Below are positions 10,046 through 50,535 of a stretch of 50,535 bases of DNA, one piece after another. The translations under genes and the position numbers were made by a program. Within the stretch, counting starts at the first letter, position 1. Each line of letters starts with the position of its first letter. The notes under the pieces are model-generated. The model worked only from the letters and a program-made list of their open reading frames with translations, searched no databases and was not told the DNA's origin. The DNA comes from Candidatus Latescibacterota bacterium. GTDB lineage: Bacteria > Latescibacterota > MWCZ01. The stretch covers positions 1 to 50,535 of the forward strand of contig JAKPPK010000170.1 of the NCBI GenBank assembly GCA_029547385.1. The letters run 5' to 3'.

Positions 10046-11121
10046 CACTCGATGCGCTGGTTCGGCAGACGCCGATGTGGCTTGATGCGTCAGGCGCGTA
10101 TGCGGACGTGATCGTGTCGAGCAGAGTGCGTCTCGCACGAAATCTGCGGCACATACCTTTCTCGTCCCAGAACAAAACCGCGGACGAGGAACGCGTGGTA
10201 GATGAAGTGCTTTCTGCCGCCCAGCACGTTCGCGACCTGAACCAGAGCACCTATTTTGACATGAAACAGCTCGAGGAACACGATCGCCAACTGCTGGTGG
10301 AACGGCATCTGATAAGCCCTGCACTGGCCCTCCGCGGAGGTAATGGCGGTGTGATGGTGGACCAGGACGAGCGCCTCAGCATCATGGTTAACGAAGAGGA
10401 CCACCTGAGGCTTCAGGCCCTTACGGCTGGATTTGAACCGCAGGCCGCCTGGCAGATGCTCGACAAGGTTGATACCGAGCTCTGCGGGAGGCTTGATATC
10501 GCGTATGATGCGGATCTGGGGTATCTCACCGCGTGTCCGACGAACGTGGGGACCGGGTTGCGCGCTTCGATTCTCATTCACCTGCCGGGGCTCGTGCTCG
10601 TGCAGACGGTCGATCAGGTCCTGAACGGCATCGCGCAAGTAGGGTTGACCGTTCGTGGCTTTTACGGGGAAGGAACCGAAGTTGTCGGCAGTCTGTTTCA
10701 AATATCAAATCAGATCACGCTGGGGAAATCGGAACACGAGATCCTCGAGACGCTGGAACGCGTCGTCAGGCAGATTATCGACTTTGAGTACAGCGCGCGA
10801 CAGACCCTGCTGCGGGATGCTCGCGCGCAGATAGAAGACAAGATATGGCGTTCCTGGGGCATCCTCGCGAACGCGCGGGTTCTGAGCGGTCAGGAATTCA
10901 TGAATCTCGCATCTGCCGTGAGACTGGGAGTAAGCACCGGGGTTCTCAAAGAACCGTCGCTGGTCCTTTTGAATGAATTGCTTGTGCGGGTACAGCCTTC
11001 CCATATCCAGCGCATGGCCGGAAGCAGACTCGACAGTGACCAGCGTGACCAGAACCGTGCCGAATATGTGCGAGAACGGTTCGCGAGCACGACGACTTCC
11101 AGCAGGCAAACACGAGATTGA
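10042..11121 (+). CDS. mcsB: Protein-arginine kinase (ATP:guanido phosphotransferase)
   Basis: Guanidino-kinase active-site signature CPTNVGTGLRAS. The 359-aa length and position between mcsA-like and clpC genes also fit. Confidence 0.9.
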   Translation: MTLDALVRQTPMWLDASGAYADVIVSSRVRLARNLRHIPFSSQNKTADEERVVDEVLSAAQHVRDLNQSTYFDMKQLEEHDRQLLVERHLISPALALRGGNGGVMVDQDERLSIMVNEEDHLRLQALTAGFEPQAAWQMLDKVDTELCGRLDIAYDADLGYLTACPTNVGTGLRASILIHLPGLVLVQTVDQVLNGIAQVGLTVRGFYGEGTEVVGSLFQISNQITLGKSEHEILETLERVVRQIIDFEYSARQTLLRDARAQIEDKIWRSWGILANARVLSGQEFMNLASAVRLGVSTGVLKEPSLVLLNELLVRVQPSHIQRMAGSRLDSDQRDQNRAEYVRERFASTTTSSRQTRD

Positions 11122-11169
11122 GAAACACTGAAAATCGATAACACCGGAATGGAAGGTGGAGGCAACGCA

Positions 11170-13683
11170 ATGGATCACCAGATGTTTACGGAGCGGGTGA
11201 AGAAGGTCATGGCGCTCGCCCGGGAGGAGTCCCAACGCCTGGGTCATGACTACGTGGGGACTGAGCACCTCCTCCTGGGACTTATCAAGGAAGGTGAAGG
11301 TCTGGCCATTGCCGCGCTGACGAGCCTGGGGCTGGACCCGGAGACTATAAAGCAGTCTGTTGAAGACGCGGTCGCCCAAACCGGCGGTCAGATGCTTATG
11401 GGACAGGCTCCGTTCACCCCCAAGGCCAAGGAAATTCTGGAAAGGGCAATGGCGGAAGCGAAGGAAATGAAAGTGCAGTATGTTGGCACTGAACACCTGC
11501 TGCTTGCCCTCGTCAAAGACCGGGAAAATGTCGCCGCACAGATTCTTTCCGCTCTGGGAGCGGACTACAAGACGATCAAGGAAGAGGTTATTGCTCTCAT
11601 TACCGGTGGAAGCAAGGCCGGACAGCCGAAGGAGAAGAAAAGCAAGACGCCTTTTCTGGATCATTTCGGGCGGGATTTGACCAAACTGGCACGTGAAAAT
11701 GCCCTCGATCCGGTCATAGGGCGCGAAAAAGAAATTGAACGGGTAAGTCAGGTTCTCAGCCGGAGGAAGAAGAATAATCCGGTCCTGATCGGTGAACCCG
11801 GTGTTGGAAAAACCGCGATCGCGGAGGGCCTCGCACAGAAAATTGTGGCGAAGGAAGTGCCGCACGTGCTGGAAAACAAACGGATTGTGACGCTGGATAT
11901 GGGTGGCATCGTTGCCGGAACGAAGTACCGCGGGCAGTTTGAAGAGCGCATCAAAGCGATCATGAACGAACTTGTCCAAAACCGTGAGGTCGTGATTTTC
12001 ATTGACGAGTTGCACACGATCGTCGGGGCAGGTTCGGCGGAAGGAACGCTTGACGCATCCAACCTGTTCAAACCGGCGCTTTCCCGGGGTGAGCTCCAGT
12101 GTATCGGCGCCACCACTCTGGACGAGTACCGCAAGCACATAGAAAAAGATGGCGCCCTTGAACGGCGTTTTCAGACGATCATGGTGGATCCTCCTTCGGT
12201 CGAAGACACGGTGAAGATTCTCAAGGGCCTCCGTCCGAAATACGAGGAACACCACCGCGTGAAATTCCCCGACGCTACGATTGAAGCCGCCGTGATGATG
12301 GCGGAGCGATATCTCCACGACCGATACCAGCCGGACAAATCGCTCGACGTTATCGACGAAGCAGGCTCCAGGGTGAGGCTGTCGAAGGTCAGTGTTCCAA
12401 ACGAAATCAAAGCGCTCGAAGCGCAGATCGCCGAGATCGAGACGAAGAAGGAATCGGCAGTTAACGAGCAGAATTTCGAAGAGGCTGCCAACCTGCGCGA
12501 CGAGGAAAAAGCACTGCGAGACAAACTGGCACTTGAACGCAGGAAATGGGAAGAAGCGCGCGAAAACGACGTCATAGAGGTGACAGAAGAAGACATTGCC
12601 TACGTTGTGAGCAGCATGACAGGTATTCCAGTTTTCCGGCTCGCGAAAAACGAATCCGAAAAACTCATGCACATGGAAGAGGAACTGGGCAAACGCGTCG
12701 TCGGGCAGCGGGAGGCAATTGCGGCAGTGTCTCGCGCAATTCGGCGTTCGCGCAGCGGACTGAAAGACCCTGATCGGCCGATCGGTTCGTTTGTGTTTCT
12801 CGGGCCAACGGGCGTGGGAAAGACTGAACTGGGGAAGGCATTGGCGGCGTACCTGTTCGAAGATGAAGACGCCGCGATCATCATCGACATGTCGGAGTTC
12901 ATGGAGAAGTTCGCGGTCAGCAGGCTGGTCGGTGCTCCTCCCGGTTATGTGGGGTACGAAGAAGGCGGTCAGCTCACCGAAAAGGTTCGCCGCAAGCCGT
13001 ATTCCGTCATTCTGCTGGATGAAATAGAAAAGGCCCACCCCGACGTGTTCAACATTCTGCTCCAGGTACTTGACGACGGGCGGCTTACGGACAGCTATGG
13101 CAGGAAAATAGACTTCCGCAACACAATCCTCATCATGACGTCGAACCTTGGCAGCCGGGATATCGGCAGCATGGGGACCTTCGGGTTCGGAAGCAAGGAC
13201 TCCCTTCCCTCACGTTCGGAGATGGAGTCGGCAATCAACCGGGAACTGAAGCGCGCGTTCAACCCCGAATTCCTCAACCGCCTCGACGAAGTGGTGATTT
13301 TCAATACCCTTTCCCATGACGATATGCTCACCATCGTTCACATTCTGATGTCGGACGTGAAGAAACGGGTAAAAGACCGCCATCTGGACCTGGAGATAAC
13401 CCCCGCCGCAACCGTGTTTCTCGCGGAAAAGGGGTACGATCCTGCCCTTGGCGCGCGTCCGTTGAAGCGAACGATTCAGAAATACCTCGAAGACCCGCTC
13501 TCGGAAGAGATATTGACGGGGAAATTCGACGGTGGTGGAACCGTGCTGATCGATCGGGACGGAGATCGCCTGGTCTTCTCGCTGAAGGATGTCTTGCCTG
13601 CGCCGGCGCAGAACCCGAACGAGCCGGGTATTGAGGATCACGGGACGGCGGACCCCCTTGTGGGAAACACGCAGACGCGGTGA
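11170..13683 (+). CDS. clpC: ATP-dependent Clp protease ATP-binding subunit ClpC
   Basis: Double Clp-N repeat ([10 protein letters not shown] and [10 protein letters not shown]), two AAA+ modules ([16 protein letters not shown]) and a UVR-like middle motif ([19 protein letters not shown]). ATG 11170 lies 7 nt after GGTGGAGG. Alternative starts are 11149 and 11182. Confidence 0.9.
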
Positions 13684-24494: not shown

Positions 24495-25121
24495 TCAACG
24501 TTGTTCGCGCAGGCTCATTTCCCGCTGTTTCGCGGCCCTTCGCACGTGCACGATGCGTTCGCATGTGGTGAGGTTCGTGAGTATCGCCATTACCCATACC
24601 GCGGCGGCAACGTGCTGATAGGGAGTATTGAGAAACACGCCGAAGATCGATGCGGCGGCAAGAAAAATCACACGTTCCGGTCTCTGCATCAAACCGACTT
24701 TGCATTCGTAGTTCAGCCCTTCCGCGCGCGCCCGAACGTAGCTGACGAGAAGAGAACCGGTCAGCGCCGCCGCGCTCAGCACCGAGGTTATCATCCAGCC
24801 GATTCGTGCGTAATGGAAGGACAACGCGATTAGGACCACGGCCTCGCTGTATCTGTCGAGAACAGAATCGAGCAACGCTCCACCGTCGGATACTCCGCCA
24901 GTTTTGCGGGCAATCTGCCCGTCAATCATGTCCGTGGAGCTACCGAACAGCATCACAAGAGCGCCTTCGAAGAACATCCCTAAGGCATAGAACCCGGCCG
25001 CGATCGTGTTGAACACCAGACCCATGATTGTGAAGGTATCCGGGTGATACCCCCGACGAATGAAATGGTTCACGAGGGGATCGACGAAAACTTGAAACCC
25101 GAGCTTCAGGTCACTGAACAT
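24495..25121 (-). CDS. CDP-alcohol phosphatidyltransferase family protein
   Basis: The signature D(x)2DG(x)2AR(x)8G(x)3D(x)3D is present as DMIDGQIARKTGGVSDGGALLDSVLDRYSE. The protein has multiple TM segments. ATG 25121 is preferred over 25190 and overlaps the rsmI end by 11 nt. Confidence 0.8.
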   Translation of the reverse strand: MFSDLKLGFQVFVDPLVNHFIRRGYHPDTFTIMGLVFNTIAAGFYALGMFFEGALVMLFGSSTDMIDGQIARKTGGVSDGGALLDSVLDRYSEAVVLIALSFHYARIGWMITSVLSAAALTGSLLVSYVRARAEGLNYECKVGLMQRPERVIFLAAASIFGVFLNTPYQHVAAAVWVMAILTNLTTCERIVHVRRAAKQREMSLREQR

Positions 25122-25836
25122 GTTCTGATCCGCATTCCGCACGGGGCGTGCGTGTCTCCACACTCTCCGTGCCCGACACCACCAGTACAAACTCGCCGCG
25201 CAACACCTTATCGTCGCAGGATGAAAGAAGCGTTGAAAGAGTACCTCGCCGCGTCTCTTCGAATTTCTTGGTCAATTCCCTCGACAATGACGCTTTCCTG
25301 TCTCCAAGCACTTCAAGGGCATCGCGAAGAGTGCTGCGGACGGAATGGGGCGTCTCGTAAAAGATCATCGTCCTCGGTTCCGCCGCCAGCTCCTCGAGTT
25401 TTCGGCGGCGCGCACTCGATTTTTTGGGAAGATACCCTTCAAACGCGAAACGGTGGACGGGAAGACCTGAGACTACCAGTGCAAGGACGAATGCGGTTGG
25501 CCCGGGTACCGGGATGATTTCAATTCCCCGTTGAATGGCTGCCTGAATGATATGCCATCCCGGGTCCGCGATAACCGGCATCCCCGCATCGCTGACCACG
25601 GCGACGTCCTTACCTTCTTCCAGCGCCGAAAGGAGTTCTGGGAATTTGGTTCGTTCGTTGTGGTCGTGATAGCTCGTGAGAGGGCACGAAACGCCCAGTT
25701 CTTTGAGCAGAATACGCGTTCGGCGGGTGTCTTCCGCAGCGATAAGGGAAACGCTCGCAAGAACCGCGCGAACCCGGTCACTCACATCCCCGAGGTTCCC
25801 GATCGGTGTTCCCACAAGGTAAAGCCGACCGGTCAT
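25111..25836 (-). CDS. rsmI: 16S rRNA (cytidine1402-2'-O)-methyltransferase
   Basis: N-terminus GRLYLVGTPIGNLGDVSDRVRAVLASVSLIAAEDTRRT and tetrapyrrole-methylase-fold length are typical of RsmI. Confidence 0.9.
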   Translation of the reverse strand: MTGRLYLVGTPIGNLGDVSDRVRAVLASVSLIAAEDTRRTRILLKELGVSCPLTSYHDHNERTKFPELLSALEEGKDVAVVSDAGMPVIADPGWHIIQAAIQRGIEIIPVPGPTAFVLALVVSGLPVHRFAFEGYLPKKSSARRRKLEELAAEPRTMIFYETPHSVRSTLRDALEVLGDRKASLSRELTKKFEETRRGTLSTLLSSCDDKVLRGEFVLVVSGTESVETRTPRAECGSEHVQ

Positions 25837-31437: not shown

Positions 31438-32601
31438 TCAGATGGTGCACGCGTTTTTTCTCGGTGGCAAACCGAAATACTCGCGATACCGGTCGATTGC
31501 GGCGAGGTAGAGCTCCGGGCGAACGTCCTCATGCACCACATTGCTCGTCATGATGATGTGGCCGCCGTTTCCCCATCCCTGGACAATGCACCGCTCCATC
31601 TCCGCTCGTGCTTCCTCGAGCGTCCCCTCACAGAGAACCCACCGAATATCCAGATTGCCGAGAAACGTAAAACGCTCCCCCCATTCCTTTTTGAGACGGG
31701 CGAGGTCCATTCCGGCCGCCACGTCGATTTCGCCGTAGCCATCCACATGTGATCTTTCGAGAAAATCGGGCAGGACGTCCCACAGGTATCCGTCGGTGGT
31801 GTTGGTGGTCCAGTATCCCATTTCGTGCAAGCCATCAGATTGCCGCTGGATATGCGGGACTACTCGTTCCCGGTACGCACGCGGCGAGATTACGGGACCG
31901 GTGTCGCCTGCGAAATCGCCGCCGAGACCCGCTATTTCGGCGCCTTCCATTCGGAAAAGGCGTGCCGTGTCAATGATCCACTGCGACTGTTTCTCATAGT
32001 AGCGGTCCAAGAGTTCCGGTGCGGTTACGAACCATTCCAGCGCAAAGGGCGGCAGCGCGGCTACAGGGATGGCGTAGAGCGAGACGTAGATCGCGACATC
32101 CAGCCCGGCGTCAGCGATGTGCCTGCGGATTCGCCGCCAGACGAACAATTGGTCGTCGCTCAGACTCGGAGGCACGTATTCCTTCTCCACGTTCGCACGG
32201 AAATCGTTCTCCCAGCGATCCAGATCACGTGTCCTCGCGTTGACGTCCTCGACGACGCCGGAAGCCGGGTGGTAGCGGAGAACCGAATCTCCCTGTTGGA
32301 AGGTGAAAGTGTCGAGCTCCACCGGCCTCGGCGCAGAAGAGGGAGGATTCGGGACGAGGCGGATCATGTCGAATTCAAGCAGCCGGAGTATCTCGAACTC
32401 ATCGTCCGCATAACGCTCCATTGCAACGCGCCACCCCTCGCGCGCCCAGACGCGCATGAACTCCGGCCAGTTGTACGGGTGTATGGCAGGCCTTCCCAGG
32501 ATCGCGTTATCTGTCGGGTGTTTGATTTCGCGTTCGAAGATGGGAGTTCTGTCCGGTTGTCTGTGCTGGAACGCTGCGCGAACACGCTCTCGTGAAGTCA
32601 T
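31438..32601 (-). CDS. Uroporphyrinogen decarboxylase (URO-D)-like family protein
   Basis: N-terminus MTSRERVRAAFQHRQPDRTPIFE and overall 387-aa barrel layout are typical of URO-D/MtaA-like proteins. It is a paralogue of the truncated CDS at 1-732. Confidence 0.7.
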   Translation of the reverse strand: MTSRERVRAAFQHRQPDRTPIFEREIKHPTDNAILGRPAIHPYNWPEFMRVWAREGWRVAMERYADDEFEILRLLEFDMIRLVPNPPSSAPRPVELDTFTFQQGDSVLRYHPASGVVEDVNARTRDLDRWENDFRANVEKEYVPPSLSDDQLFVWRRIRRHIADAGLDVAIYVSLYAIPVAALPPFALEWFVTAPELLDRYYEKQSQWIIDTARLFRMEGAEIAGLGGDFAGDTGPVISPRAYRERVVPHIQRQSDGLHEMGYWTTNTTDGYLWDVLPDFLERSHVDGYGEIDVAAGMDLARLKKEWGERFTFLGNLDIRWVLCEGTLEEARAEMERCIVQGWGNGGHIIMTSNVVHEDVRPELYLAAIDRYREYFGLPPRKNACTI

Positions 32602-36724: not shown

Positions 36725-37197
36725 TTCGCGCGTATCTTTATCAAAAAAGGGTTAAGTTCTTAATAAACAAATTCTTGACCAAGTTGCGTTTTTCGCCGTG
36801 TTGTGATCAACGAAAAATACGTATCCCTCGGCGTCGAAATCCCTTTTGAAGGGCGCTGATGCCGTTCATGGCACGGGCTGAATCACACGCTGAGATACTC
36901 GGTTAGTGTAAGGTTAAGCTAAGGGGTCAATCCCGAAGGAAACAATGCATTTTTGAACAGTGGTTTTTCTTTTTTTGGGTTTCCTTGGTGTTCAAAAATT
37001 CACACCCACTACCTGTGGTGGAAAACGGTGGAATCGCATTGATCGCATGCCGTACCCGCATTGCATGCGCCAAAATGGCAAGTTCGTCATTTGAACCTGC
37101 GGAAACCGGGTGACCCCGTGTCAGCGTTGTCTTGTTTGAAAGGCGACCGATACATTTAGAGCGTGACCCGGAACGGTATTCTGCAGGGACGATCACG
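36725..37197. promoter_or_regulatory. Low-GC divergent intergenic region upstream of dnaA: dnaA promoter and candidate oriC
   Basis: This is the longest clearly AT-enriched stretch in the window (e.g. 36736-36780 CTTTATCAAAAAAGGGTTAAGTTCTTAATAAACAAATTCTTGACC). Only degenerate DnaA-box-like 9-mers are present: TTATCAAAA at 36738 and TTTTCCACC on the minus strand at 37017-37025, each with 2 mismatches to TTATCCACA. The oriC assignment is not proven. Confidence 0.3.
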
Positions 37198-38931
37198 ATG
37201 CGTAATCATCTCAGCGCTGACGACTTCAAAACTCGCATACAATGGCATCCAGAGGATGCCGTCATCCGCGTGGACGGACGGCGAAAGATACTCGTCGACG
37301 TAGATGCCATGCATGCTCTGCGCGAGACCATCGTCAACACCGTTGGGCAGGAACGGGCGAGAGGCATCTACAGGCGTTTTGGGTACGGATGCGGGAAAGC
37401 CGACTTCGAGCAGGCCGCGGCAACCAATCCGGAAGCGTCTCCCGATGATCTTCTGGCGTTGGGGTTGCAGGCGCACATGTTCATGGGTCACGTGCATGCA
37501 GAACTGACAGAGACACGTCTGGACATGGAGAAAAAGGACCTTCGCGCGGAAGGCGTGTGGCGACACTCCTTCGAGACCGACTGCGGCGTGCCTCTGGGGC
37601 CTTCTTCGTGCTGGATGCTTCAAGGGTATGCATCAGGCTGGGCAAGTGCCCTTGTGGGAAAACCTGTGGTTGCTCTGGAACGTCAGTGTACCGGAGCAGG
37701 CGCGCCGTTCTGCATCTTCGAACTGCGAACTCCGGAAAAGCCTTTCGGACCGGAACAGGTTTTTCTGGACGACCTCGGGCAGGTCAACCTGGAGGACCAC
37801 ATCGGTCTTTTGGAGCAACTGGCGGCGGATCTTCGCACGGCACAGACGAGACTGATGGGTTCCGAGGCGAAATACCGCGCGCTGTTTGAGAACGCGCCCG
37901 ACATGATGATGCTGTGTGACCCGGTGACGGGTCGTATTCTCGACGTGAATCGTGCCGTGGTGGAACGCCTCGGGTACGAACGTGACGCCGTGCTCCGCAT
38001 GACGTTGCGTGATCTCCATCCTCAAAAAGACCACGCCACACTGAGTAAGGTAATCGGGCCTTCCATTACAGACCCGGTTGGCTCTTCGCCGATGCAATTG
38101 GTTGGTTCGGGAAAACAGGTTTGTTCCGTGGAGGCTGCGTTTTCGCTGGTTCCATTCGCGGGATCCACCGTTCTTCAAGCCATTTACCACGACGTAACTG
38201 GTTTTCAGACGGCCCAACTGGCTCTGCGCGAGGCGGAAGAGCTGGCGCGCATTGGCCGTATGGCCTCTGCCGTTGCCCACGAGATTCGCAATCCGCTGAG
38301 TGCCATCGTGAGCGGAATCCGCCTGCTCACGTCCTCCAAACGTTCTGAGGAAGAACGGTCGCTGATTTTCGACACGATTCTCGTCGAAAGTGAACGATTG
38401 GACAGCACGTTGAATGATTTCCTCCAGTTCGCACGCCCGCGGAACCCACGGAGAAAACCGGAAAACCTCGAGGAAATGCTGCAGGACCTCGTGAGAATCA
38501 TCTGGAGCGACAAAGACGCCGTCGGTTCGGTTGTGCCCAGAATAACGGTCTCTCCTGATCTGCCTCTTGTGAATTGCGACGGTGACCAGATCAGACAGGT
38601 GTTCTGGAACGTCATTCTGAACGCAATCCAGGCAATGGCAGGCCAGGGAGAGCTTGCCATCGATGTGACTTACGAGAACGGTCTGGTCCGTGTTTCGATT
38701 GCCGACACAGGCCCCGGAATTCCTCCGGAGGAACTCGAACGCGTGTTCGAGCCGTTTCACACTACAAAACCTCGGGGAACCGGTCTTGGCCTTCCCATCG
38801 CACGGCGAATTATCCAGGCCCACGGTGGAGCGATAGCTTTGGAAAGCCAACCGGGCGCGGGTACGCGGGTGACATTCACGTTGACCTCGGAAGGGATTGA
38901 TGGCAACTCCCAGAGTTCTGCTCGTAGATGA
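37198..38931 (+). CDS. Sensor histidine kinase with XylR-N/V4R sensor domain and PAS domain
   Basis: The N-terminal ~190 aa resemble the A domain of XylR/DmpR activators (VDAMHALRETIVNTVGQERARGIYRRFGYGCGKADF ... CWMLQGYASGWASALVGKPVVALERQCTGAGAPFCIFEL). A PAS domain follows, then an H-box (SAVAHEIRNPLSAI) and HATPase motifs (DTGPGI, GTGLGL). Confidence 0.85.
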   Translation: MRNHLSADDFKTRIQWHPEDAVIRVDGRRKILVDVDAMHALRETIVNTVGQERARGIYRRFGYGCGKADFEQAAATNPEASPDDLLALGLQAHMFMGHVHAELTETRLDMEKKDLRAEGVWRHSFETDCGVPLGPSSCWMLQGYASGWASALVGKPVVALERQCTGAGAPFCIFELRTPEKPFGPEQVFLDDLGQVNLEDHIGLLEQLAADLRTAQTRLMGSEAKYRALFENAPDMMMLCDPVTGRILDVNRAVVERLGYERDAVLRMTLRDLHPQKDHATLSKVIGPSITDPVGSSPMQLVGSGKQVCSVEAAFSLVPFAGSTVLQAIYHDVTGFQTAQLALREAEELARIGRMASAVAHEIRNPLSAIVSGIRLLTSSKRSEEERSLIFDTILVESERLDSTLNDFLQFARPRNPRRKPENLEEMLQDLVRIIWSDKDAVGSVVPRITVSPDLPLVNCDGDQIRQVFWNVILNAIQAMAGQGELAIDVTYENGLVRVSIADTGPGIPPEELERVFEPFHTTKPRGTGLGLPIARRIIQAHGGAIALESQPGAGTRVTFTLTSEGIDGNSQSSARR

Positions 38932-40279
38932 TGAACGCGCCGTTGTTGGTCTTCTGGCGCTGGCGCTGAAAGATGCCGGGTACCACGCCGATGTAGAACA
39001 CACGGGGACGGCAGCGGTGGGTCGCCTTTCAGACGAGGTGTACGACGCAGTTATCACAGACCTGCGTCTGGACGATATGACCGGGATCGACATTCTCAGA
39101 ATCGCGTGCAAACGCTACCCAAGCCCGGCGGTTCTGATAATGACGGGGTACGGTAGCGTGGATTCGGCAGTCGAAGCGATGAAACTCGGTGCAGCGGACT
39201 ACCTCACCAAACCCGTGTACCCGCAGGAGTTGCTGCTCACGCTTGAGCGTGCCCTCCAACACCGCCAGTTGCTCTCCGAACTGGATGCGTTGCGTCAACG
39301 CGTCGGTCAATTGCAGTTGGACGACCTTATCGGCATAAGCCCCGCGATGCAGACGGTGTTCCGCACAATTCAACGCATTGCGCGCACCGACGTGACAGTT
39401 CTCATCACCGGCGAAAGCGGCACGGGGAAGGAGCTGGTCGCTCGCGCTATCCACAACCATTCCTCGCGCGCAGCGCATCCGTTTCTTACGGTGAACTGCA
39501 GCGCGTTAACAGAGACCCTCCTCGAAAGTGAACTCTTTGGCCACGCAAAGGGAGCATTCACCGGGGCCATCGTTGCAAAAAAAGGCCTGTTTGAGGATGC
39601 CGACGGTGGGACCCTTCTCCTCGACGAAATCGGGGACATGGAGCTTGGAGCGCAGGCAGCGCTTCTGCGGGTCCTTGAATCGGGAGAGGTCAGGAGGGTG
39701 GGCGAAACAAGGCCGGTAGGAGTGGATGTGCGGATTGTGGCTTCCACGAACCGCGATCTCGAAAATGCGATTCGTGAAGGGAAATTCCGGGAAGACCTCT
39801 ATTACCGACTTCGGGTTGTCCCCGTGGATATCCCACCTCTCAGAAAACGACTGGACGATGTACTCCCCCTTGCGCAGCATTTTCTGGCTCGGTACGCCCC
39901 CAAATTCAATCGGGGACACGTCCGGCTTGCGAAAGAAACAGGTGAGGCTCTCCTTCGGTACACATGGCCGGGAAATGTGCGCGAACTGGAACATGCAATC
40001 GAACGCGCGCTGCTGTTGTCTGATGGCGACGTGCTCCTCCCGGAAGACCTTCCGCCCGAGGTGTCCAGCCCTCCCGCGAGCAGGGCCAACACGACGCAAT
40101 TGACGCTTGCGGAAATGGAACGGCAACACATCCTCGAACGCCTCGACCAGTGCTCCGGCAATCGAAGCGAAGCCGCGCGACAGCTTGGCATCAGCCGGAA
40201 TACGCTCGCGCGGAAATTGAAGAGTTACGGATTTTCGGACGAAGAAACGAACGAAGCGAGCGACGAAGCCTTTCCATAA
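38900..40279 (+). CDS. Sigma54-dependent response regulator (NtrC/AtoC family)
   Basis: Receiver domain (VLLVDDE, ITDLRLDDMTG, YLTKP), AAA+ sigma54-interaction domain (GESGTGKELVARAIH, GAFTGA, ESELFGH) and a C-terminal Fis-type HTH (AARQLGISRNTLARKL). It overlaps the kinase gene end by 32 nt. Confidence 0.9.
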   Translation: MATPRVLLVDDERAVVGLLALALKDAGYHADVEHTGTAAVGRLSDEVYDAVITDLRLDDMTGIDILRIACKRYPSPAVLIMTGYGSVDSAVEAMKLGAADYLTKPVYPQELLLTLERALQHRQLLSELDALRQRVGQLQLDDLIGISPAMQTVFRTIQRIARTDVTVLITGESGTGKELVARAIHNHSSRAAHPFLTVNCSALTETLLESELFGHAKGAFTGAIVAKKGLFEDADGGTLLLDEIGDMELGAQAALLRVLESGEVRRVGETRPVGVDVRIVASTNRDLENAIREGKFREDLYYRLRVVPVDIPPLRKRLDDVLPLAQHFLARYAPKFNRGHVRLAKETGEALLRYTWPGNVRELEHAIERALLLSDGDVLLPEDLPPEVSSPPASRANTTQLTLAEMERQHILERLDQCSGNRSEAARQLGISRNTLARKLKSYGFSDEETNEASDEAFP

Positions 40280-41718: not shown

Positions 41719-43888
41719 CCCGTATTTCCTGTGCCAGCATGGTGTAACGTCCGGTCGCTGAACCATTCCGAATGGCAATCGCGAGCGCCTTCTTCGAACC
41801 GACAAGGACAAGCAGTCTCTTCGCCCGCGTGACCGCGGTGTACAATACATTGCGCTGGAGCATCATATAGTGCTGCGTCGTGATCGGCATCACCACGGCG
41901 GGGAATTCAGATCCCTGGCTCCGGTGAACGCTGATCGCGTACGCCAGGCTCAGTTCGTCGAGCTCGTCAAACTCGTACGTGACGCGAACGGTATCCGCCG
42001 CGGAAAGGTTCAGTTCGACGCTGACCTTGGCGTTCTCGGCGTCCACGCCCACGATCCTGCCGATATCTCCATTGAAAACCATCTTGGAGTAATTGTTGCG
42101 CGTCACAATAACCTTGTCACCCACGCGGAACTCCGTAGTCCCGCGTGGCACGGAGGCACCTCCGGGGTTAAGTTTCTCCTGAAGCAGTTTGTTCAGCGCA
42201 TTAGCCCCGGTCTCCCCGCGGTACATGGGTGTCAGCACCTGGATTTCCGTGAACCGGTTGAGCTTGTACCGGAAGGGAAGGCGGCGTGTCACGAGGTCGG
42301 CGATCGTAGCGGCTATTTCCTCGGGATCTTCCCGGTAGACAAAGAAAAAATCGCCTTCGCGTGTGTTCGGAAGCTGCGGGAAAACACCCTGATTGATGGC
42401 ATGGGCGTTTGTCACGATCATACTCGCCTGTGCCTGCCTGAACACCGTGCGCAGCGCCACCGTCGCAACAACCTGAGAAGCGATGATGTCGCGGAGCACC
42501 TGACCCGGTCCCACCGACGGCAACTGGTCCGCATCGCCGACAAGGATCAATCTGCATCCGGAAGGAAGCGCCCGCACCAAATGGAGGAAGAGCTCCGTGT
42601 CCACCATTGAGGCTTCGTCCACAAGAACCACATCCGCGGGAAGTGGATGCCGCTCGTCGTGCTGGAATTCATGCCCGCCGGGAACAAAACCAAGGAGACG
42701 GTGAATCGTCTTTGCCTCGTGCCCGGTCACTTCGGCGAGTCGTTTGGCGGCCCGGCCCGTAGGCGCACAGAGGAGAAGTCTCTTTCGTTCCGCGACCAGC
42801 TCACTCACGATCCCTTGGGTGGTTGTGGTTTTGCCGGTTCCCGGTCCCCCCGTGATGACGAGGACTCCCTCTTGCAACGATGCCATGATCGCCGCAGCCT
42901 GTTCAGGCGCATACTGCACACCGGTGCGCGATTCGACGCGGGCTATCACCGACGCCTGAATTTCATTGTTGCGGGGTGAAGGATGGTGCGTGATCAGATC
43001 AGCAAGGCACTGTGCGATCTGGCGTTCGCAGAACACATACCGCGGGAGTGAGACACGATTGGCCTCAAAAAGGATTTCACCGGCTCGCGCCGCGCGCTCC
43101 ATTATCGGCAAAATCGCCGAAACGGGAACCGAAAGCTGCTGCGCTGTTTCCTGCGTCAATTCGTCTGCCGGAAGGTATGTGTGGCCTTGTTCGGTGGAGC
43201 GGTTCAGGACGTATTTGATTCCGGCTTCGATGCGGCGGGGATCGTCCTGCCCTATGCCGACGTGTTCCGCGATCTTGTCAGCGGTCTTGAACCCGATACC
43301 GGAAATTTCGTCCGCGAGGCGGTACGGGTCAGCCTTGATCACTGCGACTGATTCAGCGCCGTACTTGCGGTAAATGCGATGTGCGACTCCAGTGGGGATT
43401 TCGTGATGTTGCAGGAAAAGCATCAGTTCGCGGATATCTGCCTGTTCTCTCCATGCCGCCTGAATCTGTCTTACGCGGGTGGGGCCGATTCCTTCTATTT
43501 CGCGGAGCCGGTCCGGGTGTTTCGTGATTACGTCCAGAGTCTCCGCGCCGAATTTCCGTACGATCTTCTCTGCAAACGCAGGCCCGATTCCCTTGATCAG
43601 GCCACTGCCCAGGTAACGTTTCAGTCCTTCCGAAGACGAAGGCAGAATTGTACGATAGCTGGTGAGGCGCAACTGCTCGCCGTATGACGGGTGTGATTTC
43701 CATTCGCCGGAGACTTCAACCGTTTCCCCGATTGTGCAGGCGGGGATAGTGCCCACTATCGTTACCGGCACCTTGTCAGGCTCACGCACGAGCCGTGCGA
43801 TCGTAAAGCCGGTATCATCGTTGCGGAAGGTGACATGATCGAGGACGCCTCGCAGTGTGTCGTTCGAAGAAATAGGTGTTTCGGGCAC
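41678..43888 (-). CDS. recD2: RecD2-like SF1 DNA helicase (ATP-dependent RecD-like)
   Basis: N-terminal OB-like region, three HhH-like GIGP/GIGF motifs, Walker A VITGGPGTGKTT, LILVGDADQLPSVGPG, and a C-terminal SH3-like and 2B region (AYAISVHRSQGSEF). GTG 43888 lies 5 nt after GGGAGG. The longer starts 43945 and 44131 lack an SD. Confidence 0.85.
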   Translation of the reverse strand: MPETPISSNDTLRGVLDHVTFRNDDTGFTIARLVREPDKVPVTIVGTIPACTIGETVEVSGEWKSHPSYGEQLRLTSYRTILPSSSEGLKRYLGSGLIKGIGPAFAEKIVRKFGAETLDVITKHPDRLREIEGIGPTRVRQIQAAWREQADIRELMLFLQHHEIPTGVAHRIYRKYGAESVAVIKADPYRLADEISGIGFKTADKIAEHVGIGQDDPRRIEAGIKYVLNRSTEQGHTYLPADELTQETAQQLSVPVSAILPIMERAARAGEILFEANRVSLPRYVFCERQIAQCLADLITHHPSPRNNEIQASVIARVESRTGVQYAPEQAAAIMASLQEGVLVITGGPGTGKTTTTQGIVSELVAERKRLLLCAPTGRAAKRLAEVTGHEAKTIHRLLGFVPGGHEFQHDERHPLPADVVLVDEASMVDTELFLHLVRALPSGCRLILVGDADQLPSVGPGQVLRDIIASQVVATVALRTVFRQAQASMIVTNAHAINQGVFPQLPNTREGDFFFVYREDPEEIAATIADLVTRRLPFRYKLNRFTEIQVLTPMYRGETGANALNKLLQEKLNPGGASVPRGTTEFRVGDKVIVTRNNYSKMVFNGDIGRIVGVDAENAKVSVELNLSAADTVRVTYEFDELDELSLAYAISVHRSQGSEFPAVVMPITTQHYMMLQRNVLYTAVTRAKRLLVLVGSKKALAIAIRNGSATGRYTMLAQEIRDAVSAQRAHSPEK

Positions 43889-44013
43889 GAACGCCTCCCA
43901 TTTTGCAACAAAAAAATACTCGGGATTGCCGGGCGCGGGCAACATCGGTTGACAGTGGTCGGAGGAGCGGTTATCTACTGAGAAGGAAGGTATACCAGGA
44001 AAGGGAGGCGGCG

Positions 44014-44403
44014 TTGGCCTACGAGGTTGTTGTTGCGAAGACGGAAGAATGGCAGGACGGCAGCCTCGGAATCGTAGAGGTGGACGGGCACCGGGTCGCG
44101 TTGTGTCGAGTTGGTGACGCATTCTTCGCATTTGACGACCGATGCCCGCACGCCGGCAGCACGCTGGGATTGGGGACGCTTCACGCCAATGCGGTGGAAT
44201 GCCCGCGGCATCAATATCTCTGGCGTGTGACTGACGGGGCCCCGCTGACGACAGCGGGCCCGCTTACGTTGTTTCAGGTGCGCGTGGAAGGCGACAGTGT
44301 ATTACTCACTGTGCCTGACCGATGGCCCGAGCCCGCCCACTGGGCACGCCACCCCAAACGGGAGGAACTCAGACGCCGCCACGGATTCGAGGAAGGCGAA
44401 TGA
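44014..44403 (+). CDS. Small Rieske [2Fe-2S] domain protein (NirD-like ferredoxin)
   Basis: Rieske motif CPH-x16-CPRH (CPHAGSTLGLGTLHANAVECPRH). TTG 44014 lies 5 nt after GGGAGG. The upstream part of the 43876 ORF overlaps the recD2 start and is not considered coding. Confidence 0.75.
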   Translation: MAYEVVVAKTEEWQDGSLGIVEVDGHRVALCRVGDAFFAFDDRCPHAGSTLGLGTLHANAVECPRHQYLWRVTDGAPLTTAGPLTLFQVRVEGDSVLLTVPDRWPEPAHWARHPKREELRRRHGFEEGE

Positions 44404-45177: not shown

Positions 45178-45621
45178 TTACCCCGCGCGTGATAGATGGC
45201 CTTCCCGTTCGCTGCCGGTCCGAACACTGGAAAACTGGTAATACACAAGGTCGTGGTCCGCATATAACGTGTGTTCAAATCCCCGAACGCACGCTACCAT
45301 ATCCGGTGGCTGGAGAATCTCTTCCACCATCCTGCCGTCCTTGCCGCGCATCGTAACGGTCGGGTGTCCTTCCACAAACCACCAGTATTCGTCGAAATCG
45401 TGGAAGTGCAGTTCCACCGGAGTTCTGGCCGGCAAGCGGTACTGGTGGAAGGTCGCTGGGTCTACGGGGTTCAGCAGGTCCGCCAGTTGTCCGCAAATCC
45501 TGGCGCCCTGACTGAAACGGACGATGCAGATGCCCGGGTCTGTTCCCTGCGTTATTTCCACCATGGTTTCGCCTTCTTTCGGATTTCCCAGTTCGCTGGC
45601 ATAAGCCTGCGCTTCCGTCAT
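45178..45621 (-). CDS. Cupin domain protein
   Basis: Cupin motif 1 is present as HFHDFDEYWWFVEG (HxH...E...G), with a later H in FEHTLYA. The start is uncertain (ATG 45621 or ATG 45564). Confidence 0.65.
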   Translation of the reverse strand: MTEAQAYASELGNPKEGETMVEITQGTDPGICIVRFSQGARICGQLADLLNPVDPATFHQYRLPARTPVELHFHDFDEYWWFVEGHPTVTMRGKDGRMVEEILQPPDMVACVRGFEHTLYADHDLVYYQFSSVRTGSEREGHLSRAG

Positions 45622-47025: not shown

Positions 47026-47067
47026 GCGAAGCCGTTCCGGTCATGAACGAGGGAGGGGAGCTGGCTT

Positions 47068-48645
47068 ATGAATTACCCGTTCTGGGACGTCCCGCTGCTC
47101 GGCGGGGGACTCGTCATCGCATTGATCGCTATTCCCCACGTGTTCGTTTCGCATTTTGCCATTGGAGGCGGGATTTTTCTTGCCTGGACCGAGCGGATCG
47201 GAATTCGGAAGGGGAAACCCGAATACATTGCATTTGCGAAACGGAACACGCTGTTTTTCGTCCTGATGACACTGGTGTTCGGAGCAGTGACGGGTGTCGG
47301 CATCTGGTTTTCCATCGGTCTTGTCCACCCTGACGCCACCTCCGCGTTGATCCACAATTTCGTGTTCGGCTGGGCAATGGAGTGGGTGCTGTTCCTCGTG
47401 GAGATTGCCGCAGCACTGCTGTACTACTACGGCTGGGATCGCGTGGACCAGAAAACGCATCAGTTCATCGGCTGGGCGTACGCCGGGGCGGCGTGGGGCA
47501 GCCTCGTCGTTATCAATGGCATTCTGGCTTTCATGCTGACCCCGGGAAGATGGGTGGAAACGGGAGGCTTCTGGACAGGTTTCTTCAACCCGTCGTATTT
47601 CCCGAGCGTGCTCATCCGGACCTGCGTGTGCCTTGCTCTTGCCGGGTTGTATGCTCTCCTGATGGCGTCCAGAGAACCTGCCGGCGAGACTCATGACAAA
47701 CTCGTCCGATACGCCTCCACGTGGTTGCTTCCTGCGTTCATTGGCCTGCCGATATTCGCGGCGTGGTTTGTTTTTACGTTGCCTTCGCTCGCGCAGGACA
47801 TGTTCATGGGGCGTGCCGTGGTGCTCACGATTTTCGCGGCGTTGAGCCTGGGCATTTCGGCGATCATTTTCGCGTTCGCGTACCTGATTGCCTACCGAAA
47901 TCCGCAAAGCGTTTCCACGCCGGTTGCGCTTCTGTTTCTCGTGCTGGGCCTTGCGGTTACCGGTGTGACCGAGTTTGGGCGGGAAGCAGCGCGCAAGCCG
48001 TACATCATCTACGACTACATGTATTCAAACGCGGTGTTGAAACGGGACGTTGCCAGGCTTCAGCAGGAGGGCGTGCTGCGGAACGCGAAATGGGCGCTGG
48101 TGAGCAAGGCGACTCCTCAGAACGCGTTGATTGCTGGCCGGGAGATATTCACGCTCGCGTGCGCCCATTGCCACACCGTGGACGGGTACAACGGCGTGCG
48201 GCTGCTCGTGAAAGGCTGGCCGGAACCCTTCATCGAGCACCAGTTGACGTATCTGGACCAGCTCAAAGGGTTCATGCCTCCGTTTGTGGGGAATCCTGAG
48301 GAACGGCGGGCGCTGGCGAAGTGGCTCGCTTCGCTGAACCCAAGCGCTCTGCCGGCGCGAACCGCCGCCGCAGCAACGGACAGCCTGAGTGCGGATCCTC
48401 TGGCCCGCGGCGAAGCGGCGTACTCGGTTCACTGCGCCAATTGCCATACGATTGACGGGCGCAACGCCATCCGCCAGCATGTGAAAGGGTGGACCCAGTC
48501 CATTGCGTACGAACGGCTGGGCAGGCTGGAGAGTCTGCGCGGGTACATGCCACCTTACGAAGGACCGGAAGCAGAACGGCAGGCTCTTGCAGCGTGGCTT
48601 GCCTCAATCGGAAACGACGCTCCTGCGGCGGGAGGTGCGCGATGA
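47068..48645 (+). CDS. Cytochrome bd subunit I (CydA)-like membrane protein fused to two c-type haem-binding modules
   Basis: RBS GGGAGGGGAG upstream. CydA-like motifs are SHFAIGGG, WAMEW..LVEIAAALLYYYGWDRV and TEFGREAARKPY. There are about 8 hydrophobic segments and no long Q-loop. The C-terminal 170 aa carry CAHCH and CANCH, each followed by G(F/Y)MPP(F/Y). Confidence 0.75.
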   Translation: MNYPFWDVPLLGGGLVIALIAIPHVFVSHFAIGGGIFLAWTERIGIRKGKPEYIAFAKRNTLFFVLMTLVFGAVTGVGIWFSIGLVHPDATSALIHNFVFGWAMEWVLFLVEIAAALLYYYGWDRVDQKTHQFIGWAYAGAAWGSLVVINGILAFMLTPGRWVETGGFWTGFFNPSYFPSVLIRTCVCLALAGLYALLMASREPAGETHDKLVRYASTWLLPAFIGLPIFAAWFVFTLPSLAQDMFMGRAVVLTIFAALSLGISAIIFAFAYLIAYRNPQSVSTPVALLFLVLGLAVTGVTEFGREAARKPYIIYDYMYSNAVLKRDVARLQQEGVLRNAKWALVSKATPQNALIAGREIFTLACAHCHTVDGYNGVRLLVKGWPEPFIEHQLTYLDQLKGFMPPFVGNPEERRALAKWLASLNPSALPARTAAAATDSLSADPLARGEAAYSVHCANCHTIDGRNAIRQHVKGWTQSIAYERLGRLESLRGYMPPYEGPEAERQALAAWLASIGNDAPAAGGAR

Positions 48646-49754
48646 ACGAAGCGATCATCCCTTCAATCGATCCCATTGCTCTGCCGGCACCGGTGTGGTT
48701 GATGCAGTTCCTCAGCGGGCTGACTTTCATTTTTCACGTCATCCCCATGAACGTCGTGCTGGGAGGCGGCGTGGTGGCGCTGTTCCTGGCGGTTTGGGGA
48801 AAGCGCGGGTCTCGAAAGAACCACGTTCGGCTCGCCAGACGAATGACGTCGGTCCTCCCTGCGGCCATCGCAATGACGATAACTCTGGGCGTGCCGCCTC
48901 TGCTTTTCCTTCAGGCGATGTACGGCCCGCTGTTTTACACATCGTCGGTTCTCATGGCGTGGCCCTGGCTCAGTGTGATTGCGATTCTGCTTGTCGGGTA
49001 CTACGGGCATTACTACTTCTCGCTTTCGAACGATTTCGCAAATCCGCGGGCGCTGGTCGTCGGCGCGGTCGCCGTCGTGGCGTTTCTGGTGATTGCGTTT
49101 CTGTATGTGAGCAATATGACATTGATGGTTATGCCCGAGCGTTTCCTGGGGATCCAACGTTCGTGGACGAGCGGTTTTCTCCCGTTCACGGGCGATTCGA
49201 TTTTCGCGCCGCGTTTTCTCCACTTCATTACCGGCGCGGTTTCGGTCGGTGGTCTTCTTGCGGTGTTTGTCGGATTGCTGGAACGGTCGGATGCTGAATT
49301 CAAAGCGGTCGCGGTACGGGCGGGCGGGTTCACGTTTGTCGGCGCCACGATTGTTCAGATCGCGACAGGCATCTGGTTCCTGATTGCGCTCCGCCCGCGC
49401 GTGATGATGCTGTTCATGGGACAGGACCACGTGGCCACAGCCCTCTTCGGTGTTGCCGTCCTGCTCGCGCTTGTGGCGGTTGCCCTGATTCTGGTTGCCG
49501 TTATTGGCAAAAAACGACCGTGGATGACGATCGCTGGAACAGCGTGCATCGGCCTGACGATCATTATCATGACGGTGATGCGCTCCATCGTTCGCGAGGC
49601 GTACGTTGGCACGCGCTTCGTCGTGGCCGAACAACCCGTGAACCCGGCATGGGATGTGGTGGTTCTTTTTCTTGTGCTGCTGGTTGCCGGAACCGCGCTT
49701 GTGGGCTGGATGATTCACGCGGTGGTTACGCGAAGAGGTCTCGCGGCGTCCTGA
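48642..49754 (+). CDS. Polytopic membrane protein, distant CydA-like paralogue (partner subunit)
   Basis: ATGA overlap with the upstream stop; GGGAGG lies 6 nt upstream. There are about 9 hydrophobic segments. FHVIPMNVVLGGG and PRFLHFITGAVSVGG echo CydA N-terminal and His186-region motifs. The longer ORF from 48489 is an out-of-frame overlap. Confidence 0.55.
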   Translation: MNEAIIPSIDPIALPAPVWLMQFLSGLTFIFHVIPMNVVLGGGVVALFLAVWGKRGSRKNHVRLARRMTSVLPAAIAMTITLGVPPLLFLQAMYGPLFYTSSVLMAWPWLSVIAILLVGYYGHYYFSLSNDFANPRALVVGAVAVVAFLVIAFLYVSNMTLMVMPERFLGIQRSWTSGFLPFTGDSIFAPRFLHFITGAVSVGGLLAVFVGLLERSDAEFKAVAVRAGGFTFVGATIVQIATGIWFLIALRPRVMMLFMGQDHVATALFGVAVLLALVAVALILVAVIGKKRPWMTIAGTACIGLTIIIMTVMRSIVREAYVGTRFVVAEQPVNPAWDVVVLFLVLLVAGTALVGWMIHAVVTRRGLAAS

Positions 49755-49777
49755 CGAACTTCTATTCTGCGGAAAAG

Positions 49778-49815
49778 GAAGGCGAACACGGAGGTCGTGT
49801 TCGCCTTCTCGTTTT
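49778..49815. terminator. Bidirectional rho-independent terminator
   Basis: Perfect 12-bp stem GAAGGCGAACAC / GTGTTCGCCTTC with a 7-nt loop. It is followed by TCGTTTTG on the plus strand and CTTTTCC on the minus strand. It sits between convergent genes. Confidence 0.7.
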
Positions 49816-49830
49816 GTGGCGATTGCTCGA

Positions 49831-50535
49831 TCAAACCGGGCACATGGTACTGAATGTTTCACGTGCCTCGGTGAGGGTGGTCGCTTTGATCGTGAAACGT
49901 GGCGCCAACGTCCGCAGGAACGCCAGGGTATCGCGCAGGGTCTGACTCTGCGGGATGGACGCGTCATCATACGCGAAGGTGTTGTGCGTGATGAAACACA
50001 GCGATTTGAACGCGACGCGGTTGGTTTCCATGTCGGCGAGGACCGCCTCGATGATCGGCTGCTGCCAGTCTTTCAATGGCCCCCATTCGATGCGCAGTTC
50101 GTGCGCAAGGCCGTCGGGACTGCGCTCCGTCGGATGAGTGCTCATGGGCACTTCGAAAAAGGGAAGATCGCCCGGAACAAGGCGGTTCGAGCGGTGCGCC
50201 CAATGCGCATATCGGTATGCTGTTTCCCACCGGGCCGCGTATTTGGGAACCTCCCGCCCGGGACAGGAGACTGAGCCCGCAAGAAACCTCAACTCCGACA
50301 GAACCCGGAAAGTGTCATCGGTTGCAGAGTCATTGCCCGCACGAAACGAACGGGGCGCCCATCCGATAGCATCAGCGAACACGGTCATCGCTTCGCTGAT
50401 GATTTTCCTCTGCATATCGGCGTCGTACTCGCCGAGGTATCTGCCGTATTTGTGGTCCCCGAAACTCTGGGGATGCACGTGGAGACCCAGTTCGACCCCC
50501 TCCTCCGCGTAGTCCCGGAACATCGCGGCGTGGCG
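49831..50535 (-). CDS. Polysaccharide deacetylase / glycoside hydrolase-deacetylase superfamily-like protein, 5'-truncated by window edge
   Basis: The frame stays open from ATG 50523 to the window end. LGLHVHPQ and RSFRAGN segments resemble the His and Arg motifs of deacetylase-type (beta/alpha)7 barrels. This is a weak call. Confidence 0.45.
   Translation of the reverse strand, partial: RHAAMFRDYAEEGVELGLHVHPQSFGDHKYGRYLGEYDADMQRKIISEAMTVFADAIGWAPRSFRAGNDSATDDTFRVLSELRFLAGSVSCPGREVPKYAARWETAYRYAHWAHRSNRLVPGDLPFFEVPMSTHPTERSPDGLAHELRIEWGPLKDWQQPIIEAVLADMETNRVAFKSLCFITHNTFAYDDASIPQSQTLRDTLAFLRTLAPRFTIKATTLTEARETFSTMCPV

Follow-up and report, generated by a model that had tools for sequence, protein, structure and literature searches.

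A two-gene operon of Candidatus Latescibacterota that pairs a haem c-fused CydA homologue with a second CydA-type subunit, a probable OR-C1 member of the cytochrome bd superfamily

The contig JAKPPK010000170.1 of the Candidatus Latescibacterota assembly GCA_029547385.1 was analysed over a stretch of 50,535 nucleotides (nt), referred to below as the window, which carries towards its 3' end two adjacent genes, CDS1 and CDS2, whose products are both related to CydA, the subunit I of cytochrome bd oxidases. The original prediction for this locus, made from the letters and the translated open reading frames (ORFs), had described a CydA-like protein fused to two c-type haem modules, followed by a second CydA-like protein at the place where CydB would be expected. 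The pair almost certainly belongs to OR-C1, judging by residue match, domain layout and gene pairing; OR-C is one of three groups, with qOR and OR-N, into which the bd superfamily was divided by Murali, Gennis & Hemp 2021 (bioRxiv 10.1101/2021.01.16.426971; ISME J). The operon consists of the following features, with lengths in amino acids (aa) and transmembrane helices abbreviated as TM.

47068-48645 (+): CDS1, 525 aa, a CydA homologue of OR-C1a type in which 8 TM helices are followed by two cytochrome c modules at the C-terminus
48642-49754 (+): CDS2, 370 aa, a divergent CydA paralogue of OR-C1b type that has 9 TM helices and no Pfam match
47050-47059 (+): purine-rich ribosome-binding site of CDS1, GGGAGGGGAG, 5' of the ATG, read from the sequence
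48630-48645 (+): ribosome-binding site of CDS2, GGGAGG, in the 3' end of CDS1, together with the ATGA stop/start overlap, likewise read from the sequence
49777-49809 (+): putative intrinsic terminator, a 15-bp GC-rich hairpin and then a T-run, 23 nt past the CDS2 stop, likewise from the sequence

The two genes lie on the same strand, and the ATG of CDS2 at 48642 overlaps the TGA of CDS1 by 4 nt (ATGA) behind the GGGAGG, as had been described and was confirmed in the sequence. The hairpin at 49777-49809 is likely an intrinsic terminator closing the operon, and the gene 3' of CDS2 is convergent; together these signals mark CDS1 and CDS2 as a translationally coupled two-gene operon. The same 4-nt overlap is found in relatives, for example at 9581/9578 in locus L082, and at many other loci.

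Within CDS1, the features on which the argument depends are the membrane domain with its conserved residues and the two haem c modules behind it.

47068-47994 (+): membrane domain, aa 1-309; TM1-4 with a putative di-haem oxygen-reducing site and proton-channel residues, TM5-8 without a Q-loop
47137-47139 (+): His24 codon, corresponding in alignments to E. coli CydA His19 and Geobacillus His21, the active-site haem axial ligand
47380-47403 (+): Glu105 to Glu112, corresponding by alignment to E. coli Glu99/Glu107 of the proton channel/active site
47617-47619 (+): Arg184 codon, placed by the alignment to 5doq_A where CydA has its haem b558 ligand His186
47971-48003 (+): E302-F-G-R305-E306-A-A-R309-K-P311-Y312 at the predicted periplasmic end of TM8, from motif comparison and a weak second HMMER domain
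48085-48342 (+): cytochrome c module 1, about aa 340-425, with CAHCH at 48160-48174 and Met403 in GFMPPF as the likely sixth ligand; Cytochrome_CBB3 match at 356-420
48355-48612 (+): cytochrome c module 2, about aa 430-515, with CANCH at 48433-48447 and Met494 in GYMPPY; Cytochrom_C match at 446-487

The membrane domain of CDS1 matches the Pfam family Cyt_bd_oxida_I (PF01654) with 52.3 bits against a cut-off of 26.2, over residues 17-196, which comprise TM1-4, and this match is restricted to profile positions 6-192 of 418. Its closest sequence match in the PDB is the CydA of Geobacillus thermodenitrificans (5doq_A, E 4e-9, residues 10-163). The AlphaFold2 model of CDS1 (predicted local distance difference test score, pLDDT, 84) has eight TM helices, at 13-47, 51-86, 88-121, 128-154, 177-201, 207-237, 240-276 and 284-309, and behind them a pair of small helical domains (325-422 and 430-515); a Foldseek search of the PDB with this model returned CydA chains at all of ranks 1-10, with CydB chains next. 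Hydropathy likewise gives eight helices for CDS1, in keeping with the count first made from the sequence. Alignment with E. coli CydA pairs His24 with His19, Glu105 with Glu99, Glu112 with Glu107, His131 with His126, Ser145 with Ser140 and GWDR with GWDR; the six residues between Glu105 and Glu112 are one fewer than between Glu99 and Glu107 in E. coli and the same number as in qOR2/3/4a. The motifs first pointed out in CDS1 are all present, namely SHFAIGGG (28-35), WAMEW (102-106), LVEIAAALLYYYGWDRV (110-126), LIRTC (182-186) and TEFGREAARKPY (301-312). The reading of His29 in the first of these as the haem ligand did not hold, the aligned residue being His24.

Residue conservation in the CDS1 family was counted over 78 species. 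H24, E105, E112, H131, R184, E302, R305, E306, R309 and P311 are identical in all 78, as are C365, C368, H369 and M403 of the first haem c module; position 145 is Ser in 76 and Thr in 2, Y119 is kept in 77 and Y121 in 73, and position 29 is His in 73/78 and Gln in 5/78. At the end of TM8, E306, R309, P311 and Y312 (REAARKPY) share the spacing E-x-x-R-x-P-aromatic with E445, R448, P450 and W451 of E. coli CydA (AEYGRQPW), by which E306 and R309 would be the positional equivalents of E445 and R448; E302 and R305 were considered for this assignment and rejected, since the spacing fits the later residues. The invariance of H24, E105, E112, H131, E306 and R309, with S145 nearly so, argues for a functional, proton-consuming haem site in CDS1. 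In other respects CDS1 departs from CydA: the loop between TM6 and TM7, where CydA has its Q-loop, measures 11 aa, there is no Q-loop and no equivalent of His186 or Met393, and the TM9 of CydA is replaced by the haem c modules. Judged from these residues and loops, CDS1 has lost the quinol-oxidising apparatus, and the view of it as a CydA homologue without Q-loop or b558 ligands was upheld by the 11-aa loop and by Arg184 at the His186 position.

The C-terminal part of CDS1 matches the Pfam families Cytochrome_CBB3 (E 1.7e-17, in two stretches) and Cytochrom_C (E 3.8e-9). CAHCH begins at aa 365 (nt 48160) and CANCH at aa 456 (nt 48433), and GFMPPF and GYMPPY each follow 36 aa after their CxxCH, close to the roughly 35 aa first stated. 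The two modules are 40% identical to one another (E 3e-25), which points to a tandem duplication. The number of modules varies widely in the family: among the 78 relatives, CxxCH occurs once at 37 loci, twice at 18, three times at 18, four times at 1 and eight times at 3, and two tandem modules as in CDS1 are found in 18/78. With CxxCH, a distal Met and a predicted periplasmic location, both modules have the character of class I cytochromes c, and they resemble the CcoP and cytochrome c6/c553 types in their Pfam matches (Cytochrome_CBB3/Cytochrom_C), their CxxCH and the distal Met in an MPP motif; they differ from CcoP-type cytochrome c in being joined to a bd-family membrane subunit and not to a haem-copper oxidase.

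The N-terminus of CydA is periplasmic, and haem is attached to CxxCH motifs only in the periplasm. With the N-terminus of CDS1 placed outside, its short loops carry 8 Lys plus Arg residues where they are predicted to face the cytoplasm and 1 where they face the periplasm; this distribution and the even number of eight TM helices predict that the haem c modules lie in the periplasm, as had been proposed for them.

The second gene gave no match when searched against Pfam and NCBIfam, including to CydA, CydB and transporter families, and none of 53 members of its family searched against Pfam matched Cyt_bd_oxida_I or II. The pattern of domain matches initially expected was thus found in CDS1 (Cyt_bd_oxida_I and cytochrome c domains) and in the lack of any CydB match, while the Cyt_bd_oxida_I match expected on CDS2 was absent. 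Since CDS2 has no Pfam match, its kinship with CydA has to be sought by profile–profile or fold comparison. Comparison by hhalign of the CDS2-family profile (A2) with the CDS1-family profile (A1) gave a probability of 98.2% (E 4e-14) over 274 collinear columns, aligning CDS2 27-326 with CDS1 19-313 from TM1 to TM8, and the hidden Markov model (HMM) of A2 matches OR-C1a ORFs directly with 21-31 bits. Against the PDB, the sole chain that the A2 profile approaches is Geobacillus CydA (E 0.031), with His32 placed on His21 and His194 on His186. The AlphaFold2 model of CDS2 (pLDDT 91.5; predicted template modelling score, pTM, 0.90) has nine TM helices, the number also given by hydropathy and by the first reading of the gene, and Foldseek returned CydA chains at ranks 1-10, with a query-normalised TM-score (TMq) of up to 0.73, and CydB at ranks 11-12. 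Compared by hhalign with the single E. coli CydA and CydB sequences, in place of family profiles, A2 gave probabilities below 1% for each, and A1 gave 52% against the single E. coli CydA sequence. By these profile matches and by its modelled fold, CDS2 is a CydA paralogue and not CydB, in agreement with what had been suspected from its motifs, both of which are present (FHVIPMNVVLGGG at 31-43 and PRFLHFITGAVSVGG at 190-204).

The residues that CDS2 has kept from CydA are of particular interest, and the following codons mark the main ones.

48735-48737 (+): CDS2 His32 codon, corresponding in alignments to CydA His19/His21
49221-49223 (+): CDS2 His194 codon (in PRFLHF), corresponding in alignments to CydA His186, the haem b558 ligand
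49569-49571 (+): CDS2 Met310 codon in TM8, 66/70 conserved, a candidate second axial ligand by inference only

Conservation in the CDS2 family was counted over 70 species, in all of which H32, R191, W109 and Y120 are present; H194 and Y124 are found in 69/70, R314 and R318 in 68/70 each, M36 in 67/70 and M310 in 66/70. At the positions of the channel glutamates CDS2 has Ser111 and Val118, the Glu445 position has no conserved residue, and the loop between TM6 and TM7 measures 13 aa. M259, in an FMG motif, was considered as an equivalent of Met393 and rejected, being M in 30/53 and L in 19/53 of the sequences compared. The conserved set of His, Met, Arg, Trp and Tyr residues looks like a haem pocket and, as both haem histidines of CydA are kept, CDS2 probably binds haem itself. 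In CDS1 an invariant Arg stands in for the b558 His, whereas CDS2, which would be the non-catalytic subunit, keeps that His as well as the equivalent of His19; the only b558-type site of OR-C1 thus appears to be on the 'b' subunit. If this reading is true, His32 and His194, perhaps paired with Met310, would hold one or two b-type haems, the catalytic subunit would have swapped its own b558 for the fused haem c, and the heterodimer would contain two separate redox chains, the second of which might provide another electron entry, a storage chain or a wire across the subunits; we know of no description of such an arrangement in any bd-family enzyme. The residues of OR-C1b are absent from Table S6 of Murali et al. 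2021 (10.1101/2021.01.16.426971). Some relatives of CDS2 have C-terminal extensions, consisting of a Tll0287-like domain in P0261 and P0231 and of CusF and SCO1/SenC copper-chaperone-type domains in P0327, a hint that some lineages have additional partners or cofactors in the periplasm.

Considering the place of this pair among known systems, the closest is OR-C1 itself. Murali et al. 2021 (10.1101/2021.01.16.426971) describe OR-C enzymes as being without a quinol site, keeping H19, E99 and E107 and having cytochrome c as their likely donor, with OR-C1b as an adjacent paralogue derived by gene duplication, and report up to eight CxxCH motifs in OR-C of Desulfovibrionia. In the OR-C1a row of their Table S6 (10.1101/2021.01.16.426971) the protein has 8 TM and the residues H24, E105, E112, S145, H131, Y119, Y121, V77 and W80. 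The residue numbers of CDS1 are identical to those in this row, which argues strongly for membership of the pair in OR-C1. CDS1 further shows CydA homology over TM1-4, the equivalents of H19, E99 and E107, the glutamate spacing and the tyrosines of the group, no quinol site, and eight TM helices with a CxxCH extension predicted to be periplasmic, and it is accompanied by an adjacent OR-C1b without channel glutamates; as in OR-C1, there is no other conserved gene in the operon. The comparative genomics in which haem c-fused bd homologues were said, in the original prediction, to have been noted is thereby identified as that of OR-C1a/OR-C1b in Murali et al. 2021. Nothing essential differs in this copy, which has two haem c motifs within a family range of 1-8, and the locus brings no new category to what was described for OR-C in 2021. 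The smaller differences are that the paper gives 8 TM for the partner, compared to 9 predicted for CDS2, that Latescibacterota are not among the main carrier phyla named in its supplement, and that Table S6 has a dash for OR-C1a at the E445 position, where E306/R309 are proposed here, together with H32/H194/M310 for OR-C1b.

Canonical CydAB(X) enzymes, represented by E. coli bd-I (6RKO/6RX4) and the Geobacillus thermodenitrificans enzyme (5DOQ), have a fold in common with both subunits (Foldseek E 4e-7 and 1e-5) and share their active-site and proton-channel residues with CDS1. They differ in that sequence identity is 13-18%, in that CDS1 is without the Q-loop, the b558 His/Met and TM9, in that their partner subunit is CydB compared to the CydA-like CDS2, and in that their donor is quinol, where here it is presumably cytochrome c. 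The archaeal CydAA' of Caldivirga maquilingensis (qOR4a/qOR4b) likewise has a duplicated CydA paralogue without proton-channel glutamates as its second subunit; however, its subunit I keeps the quinol site and the b558 ligands and has no haem c, the opposite of CDS1, and where CDS2 keeps His194 (the H186 position), the A' subunit carries Ala. OR-N systems, found in Nitrospirota, Nitrospinota and Chloroflexota, are also without a quinol site, form a/b paralogue pairs and have cytochrome c as proposed donor. They differ in having 10-14 TM helices, in keeping H186, together with the other haem histidine, in both the a and the b subunits sampled (Table S6), and in that their operons are usually larger, with cytochromes c or PetABD-like proteins encoded separately, and no haem c is fused to the C-terminus.

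Relatives were collected by scanning one genome from each GTDB species for a pattern, with candidates confirmed by tblastn, and at least 593 CDS1-type relatives were confirmed among at least 600 candidate stretches. The carriers listed belong to Acidobacteriota, Eisenbacteria, Kryptonia, Ignavibacteriales, Methylomirabilota, Armatimonadota, Chloroflexota, Bacillota, Calditrichia, Desulfuromonadales/Geobacter and Desulfobulbaceae. In a library of 1.84 billion proteins, 2751 representatives of the CDS2 family were counted at 50% identity. Pairing and neighbouring genes were counted in the best 80 of the at least 593 relatives. About 66 of the 80 loci have a CDS2 homologue as the next gene downstream and 5 have one upstream, which include all three eight-haem loci of Desulfobacterota type, making the partner adjacent in about 71 to 72 of them; in the remaining 9 it lies more than 1 kb downstream (2 loci) or was undetected (a contig end; three Armatimonadota). 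No gene was conserved across the 80 loci beyond the pair itself, and a relative of 68% identity has the same pair of 526 and 370 aa, with a 4-nt overlap, among wholly different neighbours. In P0299 (L084:3001-5397), one of the CDS2-family representatives, a 798-aa ORF joins an OR-C1a, one cytochrome c module and an OR-C1b in frame; it is uninterrupted and topologically consistent, it occurs in one Logan contig only, and it is a possible Rosetta-stone fusion supporting the existence of a complex. P0351 and P0345 were also considered as fusions and were rejected, having Arg-rich low-complexity linkers that look like frameshift artefacts. The CDS1 protein itself falls in a 90%-identity cluster (P0386-P0399) of proteins from Candidatus Latescibacterota metagenome-assembled genomes (MAGs), including an anaerobic-digester bin. 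The public names in this cluster are 'c-type cytochrome', 'cytochrome c' and 'Cytochrome c6', which do not reflect the CydA-like membrane domain, and the public name of the partner is 'hypothetical protein'.

With moderate confidence we suggest that the pair is an OR-C1 enzyme acting most likely as a cytochrome c:O2 oxidoreductase, in the following manner. CDS1 (OR-C1a) would be the catalytic subunit, in which the TM1-4 bundle and the end of TM8 hold and serve two active-site haems. A periplasmic carrier, probably a soluble cytochrome c, would reduce the distal haem c of module 2, which would pass the electron to module 1, the proximal one, situated above TM8 and just past the invariant motif at the end of this helix; module 1 would then feed a di-haem site held by His24 and Glu306. 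There O2 would be reduced to water, the protons entering from the cytoplasm by way of Glu105, Glu112, His131 and Ser145, and membrane potential would arise from charge separation and not from pumping, as in canonical bd oxidases. CDS2 (OR-C1b), without the acids of the proton channel, would sit in the CydB position as a pseudo-symmetric partner. Haem occupancy, the donor, O2 as the substrate and the assembly of both subunits are what we infer here, and they are set upon the homology, topology, residue conservation and gene pairing observed in these sequences.

Several points weigh against this proposal. The hosts are often strict or nominal anaerobes, such as digester Latescibacterota, Geobacter and Desulfobulbaceae, so O2 may not be the main or the only substrate, and the b558-type His of CDS2 is oddly without explanation if haem c feeds the active site directly. 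Pairing is not universal, since in three Armatimonadota loci (L022:5980-8349, L025 and L038; including Candidatus Fervidibacter) an OR-C1a occurs with no OR-C1b nearby, and the product of the downstream gene is a soluble protein with no relation to CDS2 (hhalign probability 0.6%). In the rest of the window no respiratory genes, haem c maturation genes or candidate electron donors were found. We know of no biochemical or structural data for any OR-C enzyme in the literature covered; a 2026 copy of the PDB holds no OR-C chain, the closest being canonical CydA at 13-18% identity, and papers of 2024 and 2026 treat OR-C only as a phylogenetic class.

In one alternative the complex and its route of electron entry are the same and the acceptor is other than respiratory O2, the enzyme scavenging O2, H2O2 or NO in anaerobes, for detoxification and not for energy conservation, or reducing another small oxidant. 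The MAG cluster to which CDS1 belongs, with its anaerobic-digester bin, and the abundance of relatives in Geobacter, Desulfuromonadales, Desulfobulbaceae and Calditrichia would suit such a role, and canonical bd oxidases also have peroxidase- or catalase-like activity and confer NO tolerance. We nevertheless consider it unlikely as the principal function, given that the conservation of E105, E112, H131 and S145 is as strict as it is in bd oxidases that conserve energy, and that family members are common, too, in Chthonomonas and in soil Acidobacteriota that are aerobic or microaerobic, although detoxification and respiration are compatible with each other. Electrons might alternatively flow in the reverse direction, with menaquinol being oxidised by the membrane haems and the electrons leaving through the periplasmic haem c, which would make the pair a quinol:cytochrome c oxidoreductase for periplasmic or extracellular acceptors. 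Relatives with 3 to 8 haem c motifs in metal- and sulfate-reducing Desulfobacterota lend this some appeal, their multihaem layout resembling the inner-membrane quinol oxidases of extracellular electron transfer, and CDS2 keeps the equivalent of His186, which is next to the quinol site in CydA. Yet both subunits are without a Q-loop and without residues of a quinol site, their loops between TM6 and TM7 measuring 11 and 13 aa; the Glu/His/Ser channel of CDS1 and its equivalents of E445/R448 suit a proton-consuming reduction and not a simple electron conduit; and a single haem c is the commonest state (37/78 family members), all of which makes reverse flow highly improbable.

A canonical quinol-oxidising CydAB with an incidental cytochrome c fusion, to which the Cyt_bd_oxida_I match of CDS1 might be taken to point, is contradicted by what was found and is given next to no credence, as this match spans less than half of the profile (6-192 of 418) and CDS1, with 8 TM helices instead of the canonical 9, is without Q-loop, His186 and Met393, while its partner matches no CydB model (Cyt_bd_oxida_II) and no cydX-like ORF was noted. 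CDS2, for its part, might be a haem-free structural scaffold, its conserved histidines not being haem ligands, as in CydB, which has the same fold and no haem; CydB chains do appear among its Foldseek matches, at ranks 11-12, and it is without equivalents of E99, E107 and E445. On the other side, H32 (70/70) and H194 (69/70) align with both haem histidines of CydA, the near-invariant Met36, Met310, Arg191, Arg314, Arg318, Trp109, Tyr120 and Tyr124 make up a set typical of haem pockets, and CydA stands above CydB in both fold and sequence searches with CDS2, so that we regard a pure scaffold as possible, with odds clearly below even. That CDS2 is a haem protein with a redox role of its own is put forward tentatively, as a suggestion from its conserved residues that falls somewhat short of an even chance.

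To our knowledge, cytochrome bd oxidases are understood only as quinol oxidases. If the cytochrome c:O2 oxidoreductase reading is true, OR-C would be a copper-free, bd-type cytochrome c oxidase, and the cytochrome c pool of the periplasm would have a third connection to O2 in addition to the haem-copper enzymes of the aa3 and cbb3 types. A capacity to reduce or scavenge O2 is probably overlooked when the metabolism of anaerobic and soil lineages, including Latescibacterota, is reconstructed, because databases name the family only as 'c-type cytochrome' or 'hypothetical protein'. The pair, a compact and self-contained unit of two genes with a clear putative terminator, is well suited to heterologous expression, and the conserved His/Met set of CDS2 poses a specific and testable question, haem binding there being the chief point of interest.

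The neighbours of the pair in the window are RecD2, a small Rieske protein, a nucleotidyltransferase, an ORF without Pfam match and a DegT aminotransferase, which are unrelated and not conserved, and the remainder of the window consists of housekeeping genes. The Rieske [2Fe-2S] domain (Pfam E 3e-11) is in a small ORF at 43876-44403 (+), about 2.7 kb upstream of the operon; unrelated genes, including one on the opposite strand, lie between this ORF and the operon, and it is not beside the pair at other loci. Two flanking ORFs without Pfam match lie on the strand opposite to the operon, at 49831-50523 (-; 230 aa) and 45178-45621 (-; 147 aa). Two ORFs of the URO-D family, uroporphyrinogen decarboxylase or methyltransferase-like, are found at 25-732 (+) and 31438-32601 (-) and a tetrapyrrole methylase at 25111-25836 (-), with no link established between these three and the haem proteins of the operon.

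A two-component pair at 37132-40279 (+) consists of a histidine kinase, whose sensor domains are XylR_N, V4R and PAS, and a sigma-54 activator of the NtrC type. About 15 of the 80 related loci likewise have a sigma-54 response regulator upstream of their OR-C pair (BLAST clusters of 8 and 7 loci), a link that is weak. Further upstream, at 9485-13683 (+), a run of three genes is similar to McsA/McsB/ClpC, the quality-control module built on a protein-arginine kinase, which is best known from Bacillota; they encode a protein with a UVR motif, an ATP:guanido phosphotransferase and a double AAA+ ATPase of ClpC type that carries Clp_N and UVR.

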